Below, in pieces: positions 26,413 to 40,983 of a DNA stretch of 64,000 bases (its first letter is position 1; each line of letters begins with the position of its first letter). The stretch comes from Nostoc sp. GTDB taxonomy: Bacteria > Cyanobacteriota > Cyanobacteriia > Cyanobacteriales > Nostocaceae. Below the pieces are notes generated by a model, which was given only the letters and a program-made list of their open reading frames with translations, was not told the DNA's origin and made no database searches. The stretch spans positions 3,953-67,952 of the forward strand of contig NZ_JBALDU010000068.1 in the NCBI RefSeq assembly GCF_036917235.1, in the 5' to 3' direction. The position numbers were made by a program, and so were the translations under genes.

Positions 26413-26600
26413 CAGGACTTACGCAACTGGCACACTGCGATGGGAGCAACGCGAAAAAGTGAGATCGGGGTTTAATTCTCAGTTATATGGTTAGATTCTC
26501 AATAAAAACAGATGTTTCGCTGCGATCGCACTATTAAACAGGTGATTTGTACCCCTAATTTTTAGCACCTCACAAAATCGCGTTGCTCCCCACTGCAATC
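26413..26600. mobile_element. MITE-like remnant
   Basis: Begins with CAGGACTTACGCA end motif; 13-bp inverted repeat GGGAGCAACGCGA at 26442-26454 and 26578-26590. Confidence 0.55.
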
Positions 26601-26694
26601 GCCATTTAGTAGTACATTAGTATTATTTAGCCTCTTTCTAAAAGCTTTGTATTCGGAATAGAAACGGCATTGGTGAAGCACTATTGGAATATTT

Positions 26695-26949
26695 CAGGAC
26701 TTACACAACTGTCACAAGCAATGGTGCGGCGTAGCCGTGCCGAGCGCCAAACAACCTAAAAGGCAAACATGGGAACATTGGGACGCTTTAGTTGTTGAAT
26801 TAAATAATTTGACAGCAATCCATGCTTAATTTTATAAATTGTTTGACCACTTTTATAAGCTAAATCTTTAAGTCGAAGCCAAACTAAAATAGCGCAAGCA
26901 ATATGATTTCTTTGAATACGAGCCTTACGGCATTGACATGATTCAATGC
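26695..26949 (-). mobile_element. IS701-family transposase 3' remnant with terminal sequence
   Basis: IESCQCRKARIQRNHIACAILVW; CAGGACTTACACA end at 26695. Confidence 0.8.
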
Positions 26950-27229
26950 GTAAGGATTCAGGTCTAATATTGAGGAAGTAAAGAAGGGCGAGACAGGGAG
27001 TTACTAGAATTAGCAATTATAAACGTTCTACTTCTTGCTGTAGTTCTAAGATTGTTTTCTGTAACTCACATATTGCCTTGCTCTGCTCAATAATTATCTC
27101 TACCAGTTCTTCTTTTGATAACTGGTTCAAGCTTTCTCGGTCTAAATCTTGAGGCAGGTTTTGGTTCATATTTGTGATACTCCCCCTCAAGTGTCCCCTT
27201 TGTCAATACTCTGCCACCTGAATCCTTAC
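26950..27229 (-). mobile_element. Internally deleted IS66-like mini-element
   Basis: 14-bp perfect TIRs GTAAGGATTCAGGT; frame from 27169 reads MNQNLPQDLDRESLNQLSKEELVEIIIEQ; no TSD. Confidence 0.75.
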
Positions 27230-27330
27230 CACGAGTTAATTCTTCAATGGCAAGTGGGATAGCTACAGAGCGGAGATGTCTAATAACCATAATCCTGGCT
27301 TAAAACAGCGATGATTGCAGATTAGGGGAG

Positions 27331-28677
27331 CTAAGTGCTAATCGCAGCTAATTCAGATTTTTGTGAAATTTGCAATTCCTCAAATTGAACTACTTCGTCA
27401 GCACAAGTTTTACCAGCTTCAAAGCAGGCTTCAAGAGATGCTCCTTTGATGTAATCACCTGTTAGATAAAGCCCTGGAAGTTGGGAAAGCTGAGTTTTTA
27501 GATTGGTGGTGAATTGAGGATAATTGCTAGTATAGGCACACAATCCAACTGGATGATATTTAGCAACGTATCGCATACGATCAGATCCGCTAATGGGAAT
27601 ATATTTATTTAGAGCTTCTTCTGCTAAACGAATGAGTTCTTCAGAAGTAGCTCCATCCTTCATGTAGCGGCGACCTGTACGACCACTAAAGGTATAGCGA
27701 ATAACGTTGCGTTCGTTAATACCGTAAGCTCCGGCATTGCTGATAGGATATGTGTCATTAAATACTAAAGCCCGTACTTTTTTTGAAAAAACTTCGCGAG
27801 CGTACTCTGCTACCACTACAGTTACAGGATAGTAGTTAACCAAGTCTAAAGTTTCAGCTAGCTCTGAACTTTGAGGTGCAACTATTTTAGAAGATACTGA
27901 TGCAGGAGTTGCCAATATAACACCCGCATATTCTAATTCTTGCACACCAGATAAATCCCGTAATCGTAGACCGACAACACGTCCATTGCGAACCATCAAC
28001 GACTCTACACGACTATTCAATCGTACAGGCCCAGTTTTAGCAAACTGTTCCAATACAGGTTGCATTCCTTGAGTCAACTGGTCGTAAGTATCAAGAACCA
28101 TGCGGAGATTACTCCCCAGATTTCCAACATAAGCTTCTTCTGGTTCTGCTCCATTCATCCGAACGGTCATAGGTCGGATAACAACCTGACAAAAATTGGG
28201 GCTGAAATATTCACTCAGAGGTTTATCTCCTAGACGTTGACAGAAGTCAGTGAAGTAAGGGCCACCCAAAAGACCATTTTGAAGGTTTCGCATGACGGCT
28301 CCACAAACATTCCAGAACCGCCAGATATCTTTAGGAGTCCCTTGGCTCAAAAATTCTAGGGTTGCTTTGACACGGCGACTGTTATCTAAAGTTAGTAATT
28401 TATTGTTACGAACTTGAGAAGAGTTAAGCCCAAAAAACTCATAGGGATTGTTCCCCATTGCAGTTGTAAACTCTCGGAAAAGATTGTATGTTCTACCAAT
28501 ATTTTTTCCTCCTAACTGTACTGGTCTATCTCCTAATAGAAATGGGCGAATGCGTCCACCAATGGCATCATCTTGCTCAATTAATTCAACATTGAAGCCA
28601 CGTTGTCGTAGATAGTAAGCCGTAGCAATACCACTAGCACCACTACCAATAACTGCGTATGTGTTTAAATTCATCAT
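27331..28677 (-). CDS. FAD-dependent oxidoreductase (HemY/amine oxidase superfamily)
   Basis: GSGASG Rossmann fold, GGR motif, GLYLTGDY..GASLEAC tail. Confidence 0.85.
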   Translation of the reverse strand: MMNLNTYAVIGSGASGIATAYYLRQRGFNVELIEQDDAIGGRIRPFLLGDRPVQLGGKNIGRTYNLFREFTTAMGNNPYEFFGLNSSQVRNNKLLTLDNSRRVKATLEFLSQGTPKDIWRFWNVCGAVMRNLQNGLLGGPYFTDFCQRLGDKPLSEYFSPNFCQVVIRPMTVRMNGAEPEEAYVGNLGSNLRMVLDTYDQLTQGMQPVLEQFAKTGPVRLNSRVESLMVRNGRVVGLRLRDLSGVQELEYAGVILATPASVSSKIVAPQSSELAETLDLVNYYPVTVVVAEYAREVFSKKVRALVFNDTYPISNAGAYGINERNVIRYTFSGRTGRRYMKDGATSEELIRLAEEALNKYIPISGSDRMRYVAKYHPVGLCAYTSNYPQFTTNLKTQLSQLPGLYLTGDYIKGASLEACFEAGKTCADEVVQFEELQISQKSELAAIST

Positions 28678-28834
28678 TCACCTCTAATTATATTTACGAA
28701 ATAGTGTCATTCAGTTCTCTGAGCCATCTAGCAGCAACTTGCAACTTTAACTTGATAATCTTGACAACTTCCAATTAGAAAATAACGAGATTATTAAGTA
28801 TGCTACAAAGTCTAAACGCTATATTTGAAGAATA

Positions 28835-29125
28835 TTAATCTTCTAAGACAGTAATGGTTACTTTGCGATAAGCTTGATCTCGAAATGGTAAAACTTCCAA
28901 GTAACGTGGATCTGTTAACCATCCTCGTACATGCTCAACTGAGGGGAACTTTAATATTCGGATAGATTCTTCCTCAAAAGAACCGAGCAATCGCTCCTTG
29001 GTGTGCATACGTAAAACTACTTCTGCTCCATATTCATCACGAATTGCTACAGCCCGTTTTTTGTAATTCTCAGCAGCTTCCGATGCATGAGGATTAGGTG
29101 TTAATGTTACCAGCACATGAACCAT
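28835..29125 (-). CDS. DUF1330-like small alpha/beta-barrel protein
   Basis: ILKFPS..VRGWLTDPRY....RDQA pattern. Confidence 0.7.
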   Translation of the reverse strand: MVHVLVTLTPNPHASEAAENYKKRAVAIRDEYGAEVVLRMHTKERLLGSFEEESIRILKFPSVEHVRGWLTDPRYLEVLPFRDQAYRKVTITVLED

Positions 29126-29203
29126 TAATCTTTTACCTTGATTAGCTATTGATAATTTTTAGCTAGGAATGTCTTAAAAATCGCTCATATCTACAATCGA
29201 CAA

Positions 29204-30169
29204 TTAGACTAGTTGCGATTCTAAAACTTCTTGTAACTCAATCAATGTCTTCTGCAAAGATTTAACATCTTCAACACTAAAAACTAGAGCAGACGGAACA
29301 ATCTTTTTAATTAACTTAGACAAGATTTTCCCTGGTCCGACCTCAACAAAAATTTCAATTCCTTGTTGTTGGATATAACGTATCGAAGCCTCCCAATGAA
29401 CAGCAGAAGTTATTTGCTGCTCTGATAACTGCCTCCATTCATAACCCTTGAGCATTGGTCCTGCTGTAACATTTGAGATTACAGGTATAGTTGCATTATT
29501 GAATTGAAACTTACGAACTATATGAGCAAACTGTTGTGCAGCTTCTTGCATTAAAGGAGAATGAAAAGCCCCTGAGACAGCTAAAGGGATAGCTTTCAGA
29601 TTATTTTCAAAGGCATAAAAAAGAGCTTCTTCTATAGAAGCATTATCACCGGATATAACAATTTGTTCTGGTGAGTTCAAGTTAGCAGGAACTAACACAC
29701 CATTTGGTTGCACATTTTCTCTACATAGTTCTTCTGCTTGTTTTAATGTAACTCCTTTTAGAGCCAACATACCACCCTCCTGCGTTTTTGACATTAAGGC
29801 TCCTCTAACTTCAATCAAGCGTATAGCATCTGCAAAAGAGAGTACGCCAGCAGCAACTAATGCAGCATATTCTCCAGCACTATGTCCACAGATAAATTTT
29901 GGTTTTATAGGAAAATGTTCTTGAAAAACACTGTACAGGGCTATGTTCGTTGTTAATAAACAAGGTTGTGCAATGGAGGTTTCCATCAAATTTTCTTCCA
30001 AACCGAAAAATGAGAGATTCCGAATATTTAAATTTGTAATTTGTTCGGCAGTCTCAAAAATTTTTTCTGCTGAGATAAACTTCTTAGAAATTTCTAATCC
30101 CATTCCTACATATTGAGAACCTTGTCCGGGAAAAACTAACGCGTAATTGTTTGAAGTTAATCGTTTCAT
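29204..30169 (-). CDS. fabD: Malonyl-CoA:ACP transacylase (second copy)
   Basis: FPGQGSQ, GHSAGEY, RG..M, VSGAFHS, EVGPG. Confidence 0.93.
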   Translation of the reverse strand: MKRLTSNNYALVFPGQGSQYVGMGLEISKKFISAEKIFETAEQITNLNIRNLSFFGLEENLMETSIAQPCLLTTNIALYSVFQEHFPIKPKFICGHSAGEYAALVAAGVLSFADAIRLIEVRGALMSKTQEGGMLALKGVTLKQAEELCRENVQPNGVLVPANLNSPEQIVISGDNASIEEALFYAFENNLKAIPLAVSGAFHSPLMQEAAQQFAHIVRKFQFNNATIPVISNVTAGPMLKGYEWRQLSEQQITSAVHWEASIRYIQQQGIEIFVEVGPGKILSKLIKKIVPSALVFSVEDVKSLQKTLIELQEVLESQLV

Positions 30170-30251
30170 AGTTTAAAGAAACCTCCATTGATATCAAGAT
30201 ATTTAAATCTAAACTTTTTGACGTAACTTTTAAAGATATAAAAATCTTTTT

Positions 30252-30521
30252 CTAGCTATTATTTAATGCTGATTCCAATAATTGATAGGCATTTTGTACT
30301 GTTTTAATTCTTCCAGCTTGAGTTGTAGATATCTTCACACCAAATTTTTGCCGTATTAGCATCACAATTTTGACAATATCCACGGAAGATATTCCTACAT
30401 CATCTACCCAAGAAGCATCAGGAAGAAGCTTATTTTGGTCTATGTTAAGTCTTTGGGCAACAGCATTACAAAATTCATAGAATGAAACTGGCTTAGAGTC
30501 TTTTTCATTGATTGCAACCAT
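30252..30521 (-). CDS. Atypical, non-acidic acyl carrier protein
   Basis: 89 aa; GISSVD at the phosphopantetheine site; F..KI and IKTV ACP pattern. Confidence 0.82.
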   Translation of the reverse strand: MVAINEKDSKPVSFYEFCNAVAQRLNIDQNKLLPDASWVDDVGISSVDIVKIVMLIRQKFGVKISTTQAGRIKTVQNAYQLLESALNNS

Positions 30522-30603
30522 GTTCTTCTCCTTCTCTATTTTGAGAGTTTCTTAAATATAGTAGTACTTTTCAATCAGTATTTGAGTAACCAATAGAGCT
30601 AAT

Positions 30604-31386
30604 TTAGTTAATAAACCATTCAATTGTTAGCTCAAAAAGTTCTTGTTGATGGAATGGAAAAGAATGATGCGCTCCTTCTATTACCTGTAATTTTGGTGGT
30701 TTATTAGAAGTCATTTGTGCTTGCTCTACTAATTGCTTTACCTCTTGTAATGGAACTGTTGCATCTTCAGTTCCATGAATAATTAACAAGGGCTGATTAG
30801 CTTGCTCAACCTCTTTTAACATATCAAGCTCAAAAGATTGCTTAAGAATTTCAGGGCCACAGGTCATAAGTTCTCCGTGGTAGAGAAATTCTGATTCATC
30901 ACCCTCTTCTAAAAGAGAAAATGAATCTTCTCCAATCAATCGCATAACAGTGCCTGACAAATCAGTAAATGGTGCCCATGCAACGGTCTTATATATCTCT
31001 GAATTTCTCGCACTTTCTCGGATAACAGTTACTGCACCTAAGCAATGTCCTACTAATCCAATTGCGTTTGGGTCAACACCATCTATCTTCTTAACTAAAT
31101 CAATTGCAGCTTCTAAATCTTCTAATTCTCTATCTAAAGTTAGGTCTACTAAATCACCATCACTATCACCTGAACCTGTAAAATCAAATCTAAATACTGA
31201 TAAATTATGTTTCACAGCATAGCGAGCAAATTCTACAAAGCGCCGACTTCCACCAATCTTAGTACCTGCAAATCCATGACATACAATTAAACACGGTCTG
31301 GGTTGATTGACTTGCCCATAATGCATAACACCCACAAGGTTTTGCCCACGCTTATTTTGAAAAACAAATGCTTCCATGTTTGACAT
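30604..31386 (-). CDS. Alpha/beta hydrolase with Cys nucleophile
   Basis: CHGF, RFDFTGSGDS, GHCLG elbow, HGTEDATV, GAHHSF. Confidence 0.88.
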   Translation of the reverse strand: MSNMEAFVFQNKRGQNLVGVMHYGQVNQPRPCLIVCHGFAGTKIGGSRRFVEFARYAVKHNLSVFRFDFTGSGDSDGDLVDLTLDRELEDLEAAIDLVKKIDGVDPNAIGLVGHCLGAVTVIRESARNSEIYKTVAWAPFTDLSGTVMRLIGEDSFSLLEEGDESEFLYHGELMTCGPEILKQSFELDMLKEVEQANQPLLIIHGTEDATVPLQEVKQLVEQAQMTSNKPPKLQVIEGAHHSFPFHQQELFELTIEWFIN

Positions 31387-31405
31387 CTTTTTTCTGCTAT
31401 AAATT

Positions 31406-31831
31406 TCAATGCTTCAGACATATTGCAATTGCGATCGCCGTTGCATAATCTTTTTCATGGCTAATACTTACATCCAAATGATGAGCTGCAATATTTTGCC
31501 AAAAAGGAAGAGCAGTTTCATATAAAAAAACAATTGGTTTTCCAGAACTATTGTGTAATATTTCTATGTCAACCAATTCAATTTGACTAATGCCACTTTC
31601 CAAAACCTTTATAATTGCTTCTTTACAAGCGAATTTTCCTGCTAATCGTTGAAGTCGATGATTCTCATTTGGAAGAGTTAAAACATCTTTCCATTCTTGT
31701 TCTGTTAACCAAACTCCTATTGGTGCATCCGCTAAGTCTTTTATATCTTTGATAGAGATAAAATCTATTCCAGTTTTGACTTGAATTGGTGACTGGGCAG
31801 AAGACGCACAAATTTTGTCTTTTAGAAACAT
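31406..31831 (-). CDS. acpS: AcpS-type holo-ACP synthase
   Basis: GID, AGKFACKEAIIK, GKP, SISHE motifs; 141 aa. Confidence 0.88.
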   Translation of the reverse strand: MFLKDKICASSAQSPIQVKTGIDFISIKDIKDLADAPIGVWLTEQEWKDVLTLPNENHRLQRLAGKFACKEAIIKVLESGISQIELVDIEILHNSSGKPIVFLYETALPFWQNIAAHHLDVSISHEKDYATAIAIAICLKH

Positions 31832-31864
31832 TTGATTTTTGTTTTGTGATGTGTAAACTACCCT

Positions 31865-32863
31865 CTAGCAAACAAACGATTTGTCCCAGCGAATTAGACT
31901 TGCTCCACAAGTCAGCCCTGCGCCAAACCCAACCATCATCACATAGTCGCCTGTGACAATTCTCCCTTCTTGAACAGCATCAAATAAAGCAAGTGGAATT
32001 GAAGCAGCAGAGGTATTTCCATATTTATGAAGGTTGCACATGAAACGTTCAAATGAAATTCCCAAATATACAGCAACTTCTTCAATAATGTGAATGTTAG
32101 CCTGATGAGGAATAATCAGCTGAATATCTTCAACAGAAATATTTGCTTTATTGCAGGTATCGGTGATGGTATCGCATACCATTGGTACTACAACCTGAAA
32201 TAATTCTTCCCCATTCATTTTCAGAAAATGCTGCCTATTTTTGACAGTTTGAATTGAAGTTGGAAGTGTAGTACCCCCAGCAGGCATATACAACAGATGT
32301 TTACCTGAACCATCAGCACGCAGCACAGAAGCTAAAAAACCATTTTCTTCTTGCCCTGACTCAAGCAAAACTGCTCCTGCACCATCTCCAAACAGCACAC
32401 ATGTAGAACGGTCTTGCCAATCTATACATCTGGAGAGAACTTCTGCCCCTATAACCAAGGCATTACGAACTGTACCAGTTTTGATAAACTGTGCTGCTGT
32501 TTCTAGACCATAGACAAATCCTGAACAGGCCGCAGATATATCAAAGGCAAAGGCATTCAAAGCTCCTATATTATTCTGCACCTGACAAGCAACTGATGGA
32601 AATGGTGTATCAGGCATCATAGTTGCGACTAGAATCATTTCTACTTCTAATGATTCGATACCGCGTTTATCCAACACCTGTTTTGCAGCAGCTGTTGCTA
32701 AAGTAGATGTGCTTTCTTCAGGAGAAGCAATTCGCCGTTGAACTATCCCAGTTCTAGTACGAATCCACTCATCAGACGTATCCACTATTTTAGCTATCTC
32801 ATGGTTTGTCATGATCTGAGTAGGTAGGTAAACTCCTAAAGCAGATAACTTTACAGGTATCAA
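31865..32863 (-). CDS. fabH: Beta-ketoacyl-ACP synthase III (second copy)
   Basis: WIRTRTGI, AACSGF (Cys), PHQAN (His), GNTSAAS (Asn), GFGAGL. Confidence 0.95.
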   Translation of the reverse strand: MIPVKLSALGVYLPTQIMTNHEIAKIVDTSDEWIRTRTGIVQRRIASPEESTSTLATAAAKQVLDKRGIESLEVEMILVATMMPDTPFPSVACQVQNNIGALNAFAFDISAACSGFVYGLETAAQFIKTGTVRNALVIGAEVLSRCIDWQDRSTCVLFGDGAGAVLLESGQEENGFLASVLRADGSGKHLLYMPAGGTTLPTSIQTVKNRQHFLKMNGEELFQVVVPMVCDTITDTCNKANISVEDIQLIIPHQANIHIIEEVAVYLGISFERFMCNLHKYGNTSAASIPLALFDAVQEGRIVTGDYVMMVGFGAGLTCGASLIRWDKSFVC

Positions 32864-33237
32864 ATTGACCTCCCACTTGACAATCGAATATTAGGTTTAC
32901 CATCCACTAGAGTTAGTAGAAGACAGCTCTTACCACTAGTTTCAGAGTCCCAACAGTAAATTGGAATGCCAGAGTGCTGTGAAAAGTCTGCTGTTACTTT
33001 TTGTAATTCGTCAAAGTTAACACTTTTAACTTTAACTAGCTTGGTTCTTAAAACAGCTTCTGCAAGGATGAATACGGAGCCAATCTCACTTAAATCTCTA
33101 TTTTTAAGTGAAATATTATTGCCAGATTTTAATTCATCCACTTCTCTATCAGAAATTTCTAAGCCAAGAATGTTAACTGCTTTTTTAATATCGCAAGTCT
33201 CTAAATTTAGCTTGGATTTCGGCATAGAGCTATTCAT
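32860..33237 (-). CDS. Orphan 125-aa protein, stop overlapping the fabH start (ATGA)
   Basis: Uninterrupted ORF in AT-rich DNA with a 4-bp overlap. Confidence 0.65.
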   Translation of the reverse strand: MNSSMPKSKLNLETCDIKKAVNILGLEISDREVDELKSGNNISLKNRDLSEIGSVFILAEAVLRTKLVKVKSVNFDELQKVTADFSQHSGIPIYCWDSETSGKSCLLLTLVDGKPNIRLSSGRSI

Positions 33238-33798
33238 TCTGTGATTTCCTACAAAGGTGGTAGAGTTAATTTAAGAATTTATACAAGTTAAAAAATTAAT
33301 TTTGACTTGTACAAATCCTGCTATTTACTACTATCAAATTATCAGAGCTTATTTCGAAAATTATGCAATTTAATAAATAAGTTTCTAAGAGTTGCTGATC
33401 TGAAAGTTTGACAAAATATGTGAAACATTTGAAATAGGGGAATGTGACAGTTTTAATGTAAAAAAAGGGCGTTGCCGAATCAAAAGATAAATTAGGCGTA
33501 GCCCATTGTATACATCACTTCCAATCAGATAGGTCGGTACGTCTTGAAATGTTGTGTATTGAAAATGAAAAAACCTAGAATCAAGTTTTGTTACCACTCC
33601 CATTGCGAGTGTTGCGGCGTTGATGTAGCGTCAGACCTTACGCTTAAGACTTGTTTTTAGCGCTAGTCTCCACGCGATCGCTACAAAAACGCCGTTACGT
33701 TAAACCAAAATACAACGGTGGATATTGCTGAGACACCCTTTTGTGGTTTTATTAAAGTCTCAGCTTTTTTGCACCTTTTTCAATCTGTCAAACTCAGG

Positions 33799-34953
33799 TT
33801 AAACAAAAGAGAACTGGCTGGTATTATTGAGATTGAAATTTGTAGCGACTTGTCCTTCAATTAAACCTATAAGTTCAGGAAGAATGTTTGAAGTGCCAGC
33901 AAAGTATATAGATGTCCCACTTGGAAGGCTGCCAAAAGATTGAACCAATAAATAATCTGATGCCGAACCTTTGAGTTCGATAGTATCCAAACCAGACTGA
34001 AAGTCTTTGATAAGCGCGAAATCTTGATCTCCAATGGATGATGGATTGCCGTCATTGTAGTAAACAGCATTCTTATCACCTAGAACGAAAGTATCTCTTG
34101 CTTGACCGCCTGTAAGAACGTCAATTTCACCCTTTCCAAGGCCAAAACTAGCAACAACGGGATTGACACCAATTAGTCTGTCTGCTCCCGCACCACCATT
34201 CAAGGTATCGCTTCCACTATCACCTTCGAGGGTATCATTGCTATCAGCACCAGCCAAAATGTCATTATCACTACCACCAGCCAACAAATCGTTGCCTTTA
34301 CCACCATCGAGATTATCATTCCCGACATCACCATTTAAAAAGTCTACGCCATCATTTCCCAACAGTACGTCGTTACCTACATCGCCAAAAATGCGATCGT
34401 CTCCTTTAGCACCGACTATAAAATCGTTACCGATTCCACCATTAAGCCTATCGTTACCACCTCCACCAGTAACAGTGTCATCCCCAGCACCAGTATAAAG
34501 AAGGTCGTTACCGTCACCTGCATCAATCACGTCAGTGCCATCACCGCCATAGATAATGTCATTGCCAGCCTCACCAAAAACTATGTTCAACTTACCTTCA
34601 AGATAAATAGTATCGTTGCCAGAACCACCATTGATAGTATCGTTGCCAAGTCCAGATTTGATGACATCGTCACCGTTTCCACCTGCAAGAAGGTCGTTTC
34701 CTGCACCACCATCTATAAAATCATTACCATCTTGCCCATTAACCAAATCATTGCCATCACCCGCATCAATAGAGTCGTCCCCTTCTTCTGAAGGAATAAT
34801 ATCGTTCCCACTACCTGCAATAATTAAGTCGTTCCCAGATCCAGTCAGGATCAGGTCATCACCTCCAAGGGCAACAACAGTGATATCATTCTGTGAGTCT
34901 ATCAGTTGGATAGAATCATTTCCTTGAGTTCCGGTAACAAATTGGCTTGCCAT
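33799..34953 (-). CDS. RTX calcium-binding protein
   Basis: About 20 GGxGxD repeats; DTFVLGD...DFALIKDF C-domain. Confidence 0.9.
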   Translation of the reverse strand: MASQFVTGTQGNDSIQLIDSQNDITVVALGGDDLILTGSGNDLIIAGSGNDIIPSEEGDDSIDAGDGNDLVNGQDGNDFIDGGAGNDLLAGGNGDDVIKSGLGNDTINGGSGNDTIYLEGKLNIVFGEAGNDIIYGGDGTDVIDAGDGNDLLYTGAGDDTVTGGGGNDRLNGGIGNDFIVGAKGDDRIFGDVGNDVLLGNDGVDFLNGDVGNDNLDGGKGNDLLAGGSDNDILAGADSNDTLEGDSGSDTLNGGAGADRLIGVNPVVASFGLGKGEIDVLTGGQARDTFVLGDKNAVYYNDGNPSSIGDQDFALIKDFQSGLDTIELKGSASDYLLVQSFGSLPSGTSIYFAGTSNILPELIGLIEGQVATNFNLNNTSQFSFV

Positions 34954-35315
34954 TTTTGCTTTTACCTCTTATAAATTGCTATTGAGAGTTATGAGAATTT
35001 ACGAATTTAAGCCACTAGGGTGGGAATATTTAAATTCGTCAATATTGATAACAACAGACAATAATTGCCCTATTAAAATTCCACTTGATGCAGATAAATC
35101 TAGTAGCCTTAGAGCTACACCTATAGACATTGCATTGCTTAAAAATAAATCAAGAAACTTGCTAGATTTACAGCACTGATTAACGGAGAATTACTATTAT
35201 GGAATTGAGCTATTCCTTTGAAAAAACAAAAACTAAATTAAGAGCAGTAATAAGCAATGCTAACCGTGTAATTTTGAATTAACTATATTTTAGAATTGTT
35301 TACTATGGCGAAATG

Positions 35316-35464
35316 CTGATTACAAAATTACAATAGCATAACTTAACATGGCTATTCAAGTAAGATTTGGCTATTCATAATCGCGCATAAATAACTTACT
35401 TGTTTTAGAGGCTAATTACGTCTTTAAAAAGATGTTAAATTAGGGATTTATAGAATATTAATAG
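35316..35464. repeat. About 150-bp direct repeat, copy 1
   Basis: Aligns with 38856-39003. Confidence 0.85.
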
Positions 35465-35819
35465 ATTATAATTAGGTTTAAAGTTGTAAAAATAATATTA
35501 ATTATTAAAATAAAAATTATGTCAGCCCTCGTTAGATAGAGTTAGTCGCGTTCATTCCTTCCCCAATTAGAGCAGCTGTCTAAAGAATGGACGCTCTATG
35601 ACTGCGGACTGGGTACTAGTAAAGAAAGTATGAGTAAACTTTGGTTAAAGTCTGAATCCCTATTAAAATGTTCAAGAATATGCAGTGAAACCATTCTCTA
35701 ATCCCCACTTCAACTTACGAATTTTCATTTGGCATGGAATAGAAACACCTCACAAACTCTATAAAAGAATTTGTAAGGTGTTTCTAAAGCCAAAATCCAT
35801 CAGTGAGTTTATAAGTGTA

Positions 35820-36776
35820 CTACTTTGGTTTATGTGCTGCCACTGTTGGAAATATACGTGCATTATCATAAACAAAGTTTATGTCATCAAATCCAGCTGT
35901 TTCTAGTTGTACTTTTGTAGTGGAACAACTTCTAAAACATCTCCACTTGGAATTTAAAATATCAGCAAAAATGATATTTTCTTGTAGTAGATTATTTTGA
36001 TCTATGCGGTTTATATCTCTCTCTGATTTAGAGTCTATATCTAAGGGTGGTGTTAAAAAGCTAGTTACTAATAACCCACCTGGAGCCAACGCTTTGAAAA
36101 ACTGATGATACAATTGTGTAACTTTATTATCATCAGCTTCATAAATATTTAAACCGTTACTAGTTAATAAGTTAAATTTGTTTTCAAAGGGTAGATTCCA
36201 TGCATCTTCTTGAAAGAACTCAACTTTAGCAGATAAAGTGTATTGTTTTGCTAATTCTTTAGCACCATTAAGCATATTTGGATCAATATCGATTCCAATC
36301 AAACGGAAATTATTTATTCCCGTAAAATCCAAACTTAATAAATCTCTCATAAAACCACAAGGCAAAGAAGCTAAAACTGTTCCCTCTCGAACATATTTTT
36401 GAATAATTTTAGTGAAATGCACAGACCTTTCCTGTGTGGCAAGAAAGCTTGGACATTTATCAAAAAGTGTCTTTTCAATTTCTGTAAAATGACGACCTTG
36501 TGGATCAATACCACTAATTCTCCCTGTATACGGATGACAAATCATGTAATCTGCCCAATCCCCGTCTAATCCTTGATTTTTTAATAAAAATTGACCATAA
36601 GGACAATCAGCTAATTCGTCCACAATTATTAATTGTTTTTCAACGCTAACATGGGGTTTATCTCCTGCTCGACGAATTCTTTCTTTAATAGTTTCTACAG
36701 TTTGTTCGAGTGTTTCATCTTTATAACCATGTGAAAGAATACGTTGATCATTGAGATATTTAGATTGGCTAGTCAT
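35820..36776 (-). CDS. Class I SAM-dependent methyltransferase
   Basis: ASLPCGFMRDLL motif I variant, GIDID, LAPGGLLV. Confidence 0.85.
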   Translation of the reverse strand: MTSQSKYLNDQRILSHGYKDETLEQTVETIKERIRRAGDKPHVSVEKQLIIVDELADCPYGQFLLKNQGLDGDWADYMICHPYTGRISGIDPQGRHFTEIEKTLFDKCPSFLATQERSVHFTKIIQKYVREGTVLASLPCGFMRDLLSLDFTGINNFRLIGIDIDPNMLNGAKELAKQYTLSAKVEFFQEDAWNLPFENKFNLLTSNGLNIYEADDNKVTQLYHQFFKALAPGGLLVTSFLTPPLDIDSKSERDINRIDQNNLLQENIIFADILNSKWRCFRSCSTTKVQLETAGFDDINFVYDNARIFPTVAAHKPK

Positions 36777-37037: not shown

Positions 37038-38531
37038 TTAGAGTTTAATTGTGACAGTCTTGATTTCAGTATATTCCTGAAGTCCGTACTCACCCAGTTC
37101 TCTGCCAATCCCAGATTGCTTAAACCCACCAAAAGGGGCAGCTGCGTCGAATATTTCATAGCAATTAACCCAAATAGTTCCAGCCCGTACATTATTTATA
37201 ATTGCATGAGCTTTAGAGATATCCTTAGTCCATACTCCTGCAGCTAGCCCATAAATTGTTGCATTTGCTCGCTGTATTACTTCGTCTATGTCTTTAAATT
37301 TGATAATGCTCATAACTGGCCCAAAAATTTCCTCTTGGGCAATCTTCATATAGTCTTGAACATCAGCAAAAACCGTAGGCTCTATGAAAAATCCATTATT
37401 ACCTACTTGACTACCACCACATAACAGCCGAGCACCTTCGGATATACCCGACTCAATGTAGCTTACTACTTTATTAAGTTGCATTTGATCTATCACTGGA
37501 CCTTGTTCTACTTTTGCATCAAATGGGTTCCCAACAATACGTTGCTTAGCTCGTTCAACACTCTTAGCAACAAACTCGTCGTAGCATTTCTCTTCAACAA
37601 ATAGCCTAGATCCCGCAGCACAACACTGCCCTTGGTTGAAAAACAGAGCGGAATGTGCCCCTTCAATTGCTTGATCCATATCGGCATCAGCAAAGACAAT
37701 ATTAGGACTTTTACCACCCATCTCTAGTGTTACACGCTTAAGGTTGCTCTTAGCGGCAGCTTCCATAACTAAGCGTCCTACTTCAGTCGAGCCAGTAAAA
37801 GCAACCTTATCGATATCTGCATGCCTTGCGATCGCAGCACCAGCAGTTGGCCCATAGCCTGGCAGAATATTAACGACACCTGGGGGAAAACCCGCTTCAA
37901 CGATTAGCTCACCCACTCGAAGCGCTGTTAAAGGTGTCTGTTCAGCAGGCTTGAGAACAACTGTATTGCCTGCTGCTAAAGCTGGTGCAAGCTTCCATGC
38001 TTGCATTACTAATGGAAAGTTCCAAGGAATAATCTGACCAATAACTCCGATTGGTTCATGTCTGGTATAGCTGAAAAACGGACTATTGGTTGAGAGAGTT
38101 TTACCCTGAATCTTATCAGCCCAGCCTGCGTAGTAGCGATAGCAGGCAATAGTCAGCGGTAAGTCAATATTAAGTGAATCTGTCAACGGTTTACCGTTGT
38201 CGAGAGTTTCAAGCCTTGCTAGCTCATCTGCATGTTCTTCTATCAAATTAGCTAATCTATATAACAATTTGCCACGATTACTACTAGACATAGTGGCCCA
38301 TTCCCTGGATTCAAAAGCAGTACGAGCAACTTTAACTGCTCGATCAACATCGCGAACATCAGCCTCGGCAATCTCGCAAATGATTTCGCCAGTAGCTGGA
38401 TTAATTGTCTTGAATGTTTTGCCAGAAATACTATCGATCCACTCGTTGTTAATGAGCAGTTTAGTAGTTCTGATTTTGAGGTACTGCTCCGGTTTTGATT
38501 CTGTTAACATGAAAAATTTCCTCGTATTCAA
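37038..38531 (-). CDS. NAD-dependent aldehyde dehydrogenase
   Basis: [41 protein letters not shown]. Confidence 0.95.
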
Positions 38532-38855: not shown

Positions 38856-39003
38856 CTGATTACGAAATTACAATAACATAATTAAAATGGCTATTCAAGT
38901 AAGATTTGACCATTGTAATCGCGCATAAATAACTTACTTGTTTTTGAAGCTAGTTGCTTTTCGAGAAAGATGTCATAGTAGGGATTTATAGAAATATTAG
39001 TAG
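38856..39003. repeat. About 150-bp direct repeat, copy 2
   Basis: Aligns with 35316-35464. Confidence 0.85.
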
Positions 39004-40734: not shown

Positions 40735-40983
40735 ACAGCAATCCTAATATCTTAAACAGCTACAAACTTATCAGATATTGTTTAAGATATTATGCAAGTT
40801 TCGTCAGTAATAGGTTAAGGAAATCACTCCTTTTAAAAGGTATTGGTCAAAATTATTTACTTATCGGGAGAGAAAAATATAAGCCTTAAAGTTTCGTACT
40901 TGTTTGACTATTTGGTAGTAGGTGTCAGATTAAAAAATAAGAATTCGATATTTTTATTTATTCGCATTAACCACCCAGCCTTT

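Follow-up and report, generated by a model that had tools for sequence, protein, structure and literature searches.

A charge-inverted carrier protein in a rare FabH-AcpS-ACP-FabD operon of Nostoc: a candidate initiation-only synthase apart from fatty-acid synthesis

The window analyzed here is a 64,000-nt stretch of a 69-kb contig (C68) from the 7.67-Mb genome of Nostoc sp. Positions 27331-33237 hold eight co-oriented open reading frames (ORFs), all on the minus strand. Pfam and NCBIfam profiles recognize among them FabH (KAS III, or ketoacyl-ACP synthase III), an AcpS-type phosphopantetheinyl transferase (PPTase), an alpha/beta hydrolase (ABH) with a cysteine nucleophile, an acyl carrier protein (ACP) and FabD, the malonyl-CoA:ACP transacylase. 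We propose, with a probability of roughly 55%, that this operon encodes an "initiation-only" type II synthase that acts on its own carrier protein and is insulated from fatty-acid synthesis (FAS), and its output is most likely a small specialized metabolite. The enzymes belong to known families, but the ACP falls below the AcpP equivalog cut-off and the FabH lacks the basic docking patch of housekeeping FabHs. A first-pass annotation of this DNA had described eight co-oriented genes in AT-rich sequence, free of reductases and of an elongating ketosynthase, and the ORFs and domains agree. GC content is 37.5% at the operon versus 41.6% genome-wide, at the 5th percentile of 5.9-kb windows. Domain profiles found no fabG, fabZ, fabI or plsX inside the operon, and no match to an elongating ketosynthase (PF00109) across the whole contig. 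Gaps between the eight genes range from -4 to 157 nt, and dN/dS values of 0.06-0.30, calculated against two Nostoc relatives, indicate purifying selection on every one of them.

The carrier protein (89 aa, PF00550, 30252-30521) has an isoelectric point (pI) of 8.05 and a net charge of +1, against 4.05 and -15 for E. coli AcpP. The same holds for its family, in which pI ranges from 6.5 to 9.7 and net charge from 0 to +5, while the AcpP of the host is acidic like that of E. coli. Helix II of the cassette ACP is charge-inverted (…GISSVDIVKIVMLIRQKFGVK…), reading SSVDIVKIVMLIRQKFGVK as opposed to DSLDTVELVMALEEEFDIE in AcpP. The serine of the phosphopantetheine site is kept. The protein scores 53.2 bits with the AcpP equivalog TIGR00517, below the cut-off of 70.45, and its family amounts to only 40 clusters among 5.8 billion proteins. 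The AcpS encoded in the same operon (141 aa, PF01648, 31406-31831) is acidic, with a pI of 5.8, and its cassette family lies at about 5-6. It passes the domain model TIGR00556 (68.7 bits, cut-off 45.35) but not the equivalog TIGR00516 (53.2 bits, cut-off 59.8), and is AcpS-sized.

FabH (31865-32863) is a well-formed member of its family, at 390 bits with TIGR00747 against a cut-off of 292.1. The catalytic triad Cys112-His244-Asn274 and the CoA-binding residues W32, R36 and R151 are conserved in all 13 cassette FabHs, and Phe87, the gate typical of FabHs that use short primers, is unchanged. The docking patch is another matter. We take K214, R249 and K256/K257 of E. coli FabH to be the AcpP-docking residues, following the mutagenesis literature. 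At these positions the cassette proteins carry K214Q in 13/13 and R249H in 12/13, with a non-basic residue at K257 in 13/13 and A253E in 11/13, whereas every housekeeping FabH examined, from both of the phyla described below, keeps Lys or Arg. FabD (29204-30169) exceeds its model TIGR00128 as well (296.6 bits, cut-off 260.9), and Q11, Q63, S92, R117, H201 and Q250 are conserved in ten of ten cassette FabDs. The neutral-to-basic ACP, the lost docking residues of FabH and the acidic AcpS together point to a carrier system insulated from FAS. Such a charge inversion would explain why the operon has its own AcpS, FabD and FabH, and predicts that its intermediate is invisible to FabG, FabZ, FabI and FabF.

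The operon had been suggested to be a dedicated rather than a housekeeping set, and the rest of the genome supports this. A housekeeping plsX-fabH-fabD cluster lies on contig C90, which excludes that the operon holds the only fabH and fabD of the genome, and acpP adjoins fabF on contig C2. The window FabH is 48% identical to the host housekeeping FabH, and the corresponding figure for FabD is 34%. Six other host genomes were checked, and each of them retains a housekeeping fabH as well. A maximum-likelihood tree groups the cassette FabHs in a single clade (support 98/100), apart from the cyanobacterial housekeeping clade and from two Bacillota FabH clades. The cassette AcpS is the sole AcpS-type PPTase of the genome, and a Sfp/HetI-type PPTase is encoded by a 243-aa frame on contig C99. 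A survey of cyanobacterial PPTases lists a few AcpS-type enzymes in cyanobacteria (PMC5605751).

To follow the cassette across bacteria, homologues of the hydrolase were sought in one genome for each of 185,579 species. They form a tight family at identities of at least 51-57%, after which values fall to 37% or less. The tight family comprises 17 loci. Its cyanobacterial hosts are several Nostoc, Fischerella muscicola PCC 7414, a Leptolyngbyaceae metagenome-assembled genome (MAG) and Aphanocapsa lilacina; its Bacillota hosts are Priestia megaterium, Tumebacillus flagellatus, Paenibacillus puerhi, P. filicis and a Bacilli MAG. Further copies, found in other look-ups, are in Scytonema, Gloeobacter morelensis and Nostoc cf. 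commune SO-36. With one exception the related loci keep the core order FabH-AcpS-ABH-ACP-(Cof-type HAD-IIB phosphatase)-FabD, and identities across the two phyla are 62-65% for FabH, 60-63% for the hydrolase and 54-70% for the ACP. The cassette is common to Cyanobacteria and Bacillota and conserved as a unit. The exception is a solo Cys hydrolase (72% identity) in Nostoc sp. ChiQUE01b (L025, 10001-10783). It is unaccompanied by FabH, ACP or FabD genes and sits in a polyketide synthase (PKS)/non-ribosomal peptide synthetase (NRPS) cluster that also encodes a P450, two sulfotransferases and an APS kinase. The gene set had not been recognized as a described cluster, and we likewise found no description of it, nor of a charge-inverted ACP of this kind, in the open full-text literature.

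Two variants can be told apart by the phosphatase. The Nostoc type, represented by the window, Nostoc cf. commune SO-36 and about ten other loci, has the order transposase-RTX-RTX-small protein-FabH-AcpS-ABH-ACP-FabD-DUF1330-flavoenzyme. It has no phosphatase. In 11 of 11 complete loci outside this type, a Cof-type HAD-IIB phosphatase (TIGR00099, above cut-off) stands between ACP and FabD and usually overlaps both genes. It is a near-core member in every lineage but the Nostoc variant, from which the gene appears to have been lost. In Priestia megaterium (L013 / L026, 4619-5490) the phosphatase gene is apparently split into frames of 218 and 87 aa.

The hydrolase (260 aa, 30604-31386) matches the dienelactone hydrolase family PF01738 at 51.5 bits (cut-off 21) and carries a G-H-C-L-G elbow. 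Its Cys115-Asp208-His241 triad is invariant in 25 homologues. The nucleophile is Cys in all 17 cassette-type copies and Ser in 60 of 62 distant relatives. A Cys acyl-enzyme is a thioester and favors transfer or ring closure, as in PhaC, ObiF, SulM and dienelactone hydrolase. A metagenomic protein, P0033, is a natural ABH-ACP fusion in which both signature motifs are present. It fits the evidence that the Cys hydrolase is the off-loading enzyme of the cassette, and the fusion and the invariant triad are consistent with the first-pass proposal of one or a few condensations followed by release through this enzyme. In a metagenome contig (L016, 17302-20164) the cassette has two tandem Cys hydrolases and no AcpS, and lies a few kb from the eboA-TatD-UbiA genes of an ebo cluster.

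The remaining two enzymes of the window are candidates for tailoring. The DUF1330 protein (PF07045, 28835-29125), a small alpha+beta barrel, accompanies the cassette in Nostoc, Tumebacillus, Priestia, Paenibacillus and one metagenome copy. By analogy with CmaL, it likely acts as an isomerase or tautomerase; CmaL, the only characterized DUF1330 member, is needed for L-allo-isoleucine (work cited in PMC4228168). The FAD oxidoreductase (PF01593, 27331-28677) belongs to the protoporphyrinogen-oxidase/phytoene-desaturase branch of the amine-oxidase superfamily, with protoporphyrinogen oxidase (PPOX, 2ivd) and phytoene desaturase (5mog) as its best PDB relatives. Only loci of the Nostoc type, the ones without a phosphatase, carry it.

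Considering these parts together, we can outline a pathway in which the first three steps are drawn from sequence evidence and the later three are more conjectural. The acidic, dedicated AcpS would turn the basic apo-ACP into its holo form, FabD would load malonyl from malonyl-CoA onto it, and FabH would condense a short acyl-CoA with malonyl-ACP once to give a 3-oxoacyl-ACP, in the simplest case acetoacetyl-ACP. Given the inverted helix II of the ACP and a FabH patch without Lys or Arg, this intermediate would go unseen by FabG, FabZ, FabI and FabF, and its beta-keto group would be kept. The Cys hydrolase would then take the 3-oxoacyl group as a thioester and off-load it, more likely by transfer to an acceptor or by lactonization than by plain hydrolysis. 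In the phosphatase-bearing lineages the acceptor or intermediate may be phosphorylated, as suggested by the Cof-type phosphatase gene between ACP and FabD. In the Nostoc variant, DUF1330 and the PPOX/CrtI-like FAD dehydrogenase may tailor the released beta-dicarbonyl into a small metabolite. The product may be a ketone, a pyrone, a lactone or a signal.

A bolder version of this scheme is possible, but we hold it only tentatively and think it unlikely as a whole. Here the cassette would be an evolved orthogonal carrier system that ancestrally passed a beta-ketoacyl group to a phosphorylated acceptor, yielding a butenolide, furanone or enol-lactone independently of AfsA, and in Nostoc a flavin dehydrogenase would have taken the place of the phosphatase, leading to a different derivative. 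If so, the ACP, PPTase, FabH and Cys acyl-transferase would be co-adapted to hold a reactive beta-ketoacyl unit off FAS, and an AfsA-independent route would be common to cyanobacteria and Bacillota.

Several observations weigh against the proposal of an insulated, initiation-only synthase. Docking positions 286/287 of FabD are partly basic still, with no clear inversion, and the primer size of FabH is read solely from conserved pocket residues. The structural model of the hydrolase (pLDDT 89) is nearest to Ser carboxylesterases, so that release may also be by plain hydrolysis; the polyketide-handling hydrolases GrgF and DcsB come further down the list of fold matches. The roles given to DUF1330 and the flavoenzyme are argued from family analogy. 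As for the phosphatase, its role is a guess, and its gene is absent from the window's variant.

The accessory genes of the relatives raise the possibility of more than one condensation. Recurring in loci other than the window are a fused 4-oxalocrotonate tautomerase (4-OT), DUF1330, a PcaC-like CMD protein, short-chain dehydrogenase/reductase (SDR) and aldo-keto reductases, a PapA5-like O-acyltransferase, ABM and SnoaL barrels, and MFS/EamA exporters. Among these, SnoaL, ABM, the fused 4-OT and CMD are typical of poly-beta-keto tailoring. The Priestia megaterium cassette is followed by the full set of accB-accC-accD-accA and by a CMD gene (L013 / L026, 7444-11182), which suggests a high demand for malonyl units. 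It is conceivable, then, that the operon is an iterative mini-PKS, in which FabH would re-load the chain and lengthen it on the operon's own ACP by two or three malonyl units, and the hydrolase and small barrels (DUF1330; ABM, SnoaL, 4-OT and CMD in the relatives) would cyclize the poly-beta-keto chain to a pyrone-, resorcinol- or phloroglucinol-type ring. The absence of reductases, which leaves all keto groups in place, suits this. However, one CoA-primed condensation is the norm for a KAS III, and the residues that bind CoA and those of the narrow pocket are conserved. None of about 25 loci contains a chain-length factor or another ketosynthase, and the phosphatase is left unexplained. We consider an iterative synthase unlikely, although more probable than the alternatives that follow.

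Less probable again is that the cassette is a starter-unit or acyl-donor module that feeds a 3-oxoacyl-ACP to a PKS, NRPS or lipid enzyme encoded elsewhere. FabH with an acyltransferase and an ACP resembles the logic of ZhuH/ZhuC/ZhuG. A gene for the PapA5-like O-acyltransferase lies downstream of some cyanobacterial copies, and the solo hydrolase copy of ChiQUE01b is inside a PKS/NRPS cluster. Nevertheless, the window has no PKS or NRPS beside the cassette, and neither do the Tumebacillus, Priestia, Paenibacillus and Gloeobacter loci. No ketosynthase other than FabH is encoded anywhere on the contig, and an ACP of inverted charge would be a poor docking partner for unrelated synthases.

The accessories of the relatives also mirror enzymes of the beta-ketoadipate pathway: the PcaC-like CMD protein, 4-OT, an enol-lactonase-like ABH and a muconolactone-isomerase-like barrel. 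Together with BioZ structures that are detectable relatives of the cassette FabH, they would suit a BioZ-type route, a cofactor or precursor pathway in which FabH condenses a dicarboxyl-CoA such as succinyl- or glutaryl-CoA to give 3-oxoadipyl- or 3-oxopimeloyl-ACP. We regard this as improbable. The cassette FabH is far nearer to true FabHs (E 1e-91) than to the BioZ chains in the PDB (E 1e-48 to 1e-49), no bio genes are nearby, the distribution is very rare, and an insulated ACP would block the reductions needed for pimeloyl-ACP. Redundant or back-up initiation of ordinary FAS hardly deserves weight: FabH and FabD do exceed the housekeeping family cut-offs, but the genome has its housekeeping set, the cassette FabHs stand in a clade apart, only 1% of the genomes in the family carry the cassette, its basic ACP scores below the AcpP cut-off, and the FabH docking residues are changed.

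The surroundings of the cassette are informative as to how it travels. The hydrolase is carried by 3 of 301 genomes of the window's own taxonomic family. The same transposase family, ISAzo13, is at the same edge of all Nostoc-type loci; in the window its gene (PF07592, 39499-40734, also on the minus strand, as are the other flanking genes named below) marks the edge of the island. The closest relative, Nostoc cf. commune SO-36, has a different downstream flank, and the copy of Nostoc linckia NIES-25 (L028) lies on a 1.78-Mb replicon annotated plasmid1. Together with the low GC content, these features indicate that the operon is a rare, horizontally mobile accessory island.

The first gene of the operon encodes a small protein of 125 aa (32860-33237) without a Pfam or NCBIfam match; the last 4 nt of its gene are shared with the start of fabH. 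It had been labeled an orphan, which does not hold: homologues at 47-94% identity lie directly upstream of fabH in Nostoc, Scytonema, Fischerella, Leptolyngbyaceae and metagenome copies, so that it represents a conserved family in cyanobacterial versions of the cassette. Its dN/dS is 0.16-0.21, and its AlphaFold model is poor (pLDDT 51). A protein of 210-217 aa stands beside the cassette in Tumebacillus (L010, 13425-14078) and in a metagenome locus (L125, 7319-7951), where the two are 57% identical; it has no Pfam or NCBIfam match either.

Upstream of the operon is a gene for an RTX calcium-binding repeat protein (PF00353, 33799-34953). A homologue is upstream in all Nostoc-type loci and in no other lineage, and its membership in the cassette is doubtful. 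One or two RTX proteins, one of them HpiC1-like, always lie between transposase and cassette (L015, 4698-7811; L115, 3573-6714). The first-pass annotation had proposed that the neighboring methyltransferase (35820-36776) and aldehyde dehydrogenase (ALDH, 37038-38531) be tested along with the cluster. We rejected both as pathway genes and place them outside the conserved unit, as they occur in no relative, including the closest, SO-36. A 78-nt direct repeat, 85% identical with copies 3538 nt apart (35378-35455 and 38916-38993), brackets the two genes, and the relatives carry a second RTX/HpiC1-like gene in their place; this suggests that the methyltransferase-ALDH block arose by a replacement event. 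An AT-rich motif of 41 nt (63-73% similar) occurs twice just upstream of the small gene (33249-33371) and once upstream of the transposase (40760-40800). It has no further copies in the genome and hence is not the end of a multi-copy insertion sequence. A scan of 26500-36000 for promoters and terminators gave counts equal to shuffled expectation and so does not mark the ends of the operon, and the PADLOC defense models returned a single marginal desaturase match (E 5e-4), with no link to a defense system.

If the proposal of an insulated synthase is correct, the operon would be a compact natural acyl-carrier system in which an inverted electrostatic interface has co-evolved among ACP, PPTase, loader and condensing enzyme. 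Such a system would bear directly on the question of how cross-talk between carrier proteins is prevented, and on the engineering of orthogonal FAS and PKS modules. It would also be a biosynthetic cassette of about 6 kb and eight genes that standard genome mining has probably overlooked.

Known systems resemble the cassette in part. Two were considered and rejected: the dialkylresorcinol ketosynthases DarB/StlD, with whose NCBIfam model FabH scores 53 bits against a cut-off of 550, and the tetronate cassette, since the phosphatase of the relatives is Cof-type HAD-IIB (TIGR00099) and not FkbH-like, and the window has none. CmaL of the coronatine pathway is of the same Pfam family as the window's DUF1330 protein, the level at which alone the two were compared, and is a small barrel needed for an isomerization next to a carbonyl or imine, but its pathway context is different and the cassette has no aminotransferase partner. 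Dienelactone hydrolase, PhaC synthase and the ObiF/SulM thioesterase domains share the Cys-His-Asp triad and the fold of the cassette hydrolase, which differs in being nearest to Ser carboxylesterases (PET46, TTL lipase, feruloyl esterases) and in being free-standing with a discrete ACP. The logic of the gamma-butyrolactone and furan hormones (AfsA, BprA and a phosphatase; MmfL/H/P) could match that of the cassette, with a beta-ketoacyl thioester, a phosphorylated acceptor, a HAD phosphatase and oxidoreductases. The likeness is hypothetical: no AfsA (A-factor biosynthesis) domain was matched by Pfam among the cluster proteins, the part of the transferase would fall to a Cys alpha/beta hydrolase, and the window is without a phosphatase.

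Closer in composition is the priming of R1128 and daunorubicin synthesis (ZhuH/DpsC with ZhuC/DpsD and ZhuG), which likewise relies on a free-standing KAS III together with an acyltransferase and an ACP of its own to make a short beta-ketoacyl starter. There, however, the starter is made for a ketosynthase-chain-length factor pair (KS-CLF), and neither the contig nor about 25 related loci have a PF00109 match; the cassette has no KS-CLF or PKS nearby, brings its own PPTase and Cys hydrolase, and is found in cyanobacteria and Bacillota. With the initiation of type II FAS (FabD, FabH, AcpP, AcpS) the cassette has the same four families in common, and the catalytic residues of FabH and FabD are intact. 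It departs from that system in lacking FabG, FabZ, FabI and FabF, in pairing a neutral-to-basic ACP with an acidic AcpS, and in a FabH that has given up K214, R249 and K257 and forms a clade of its own, and it is a rare set of genes held in one operon with a Cys hydrolase.

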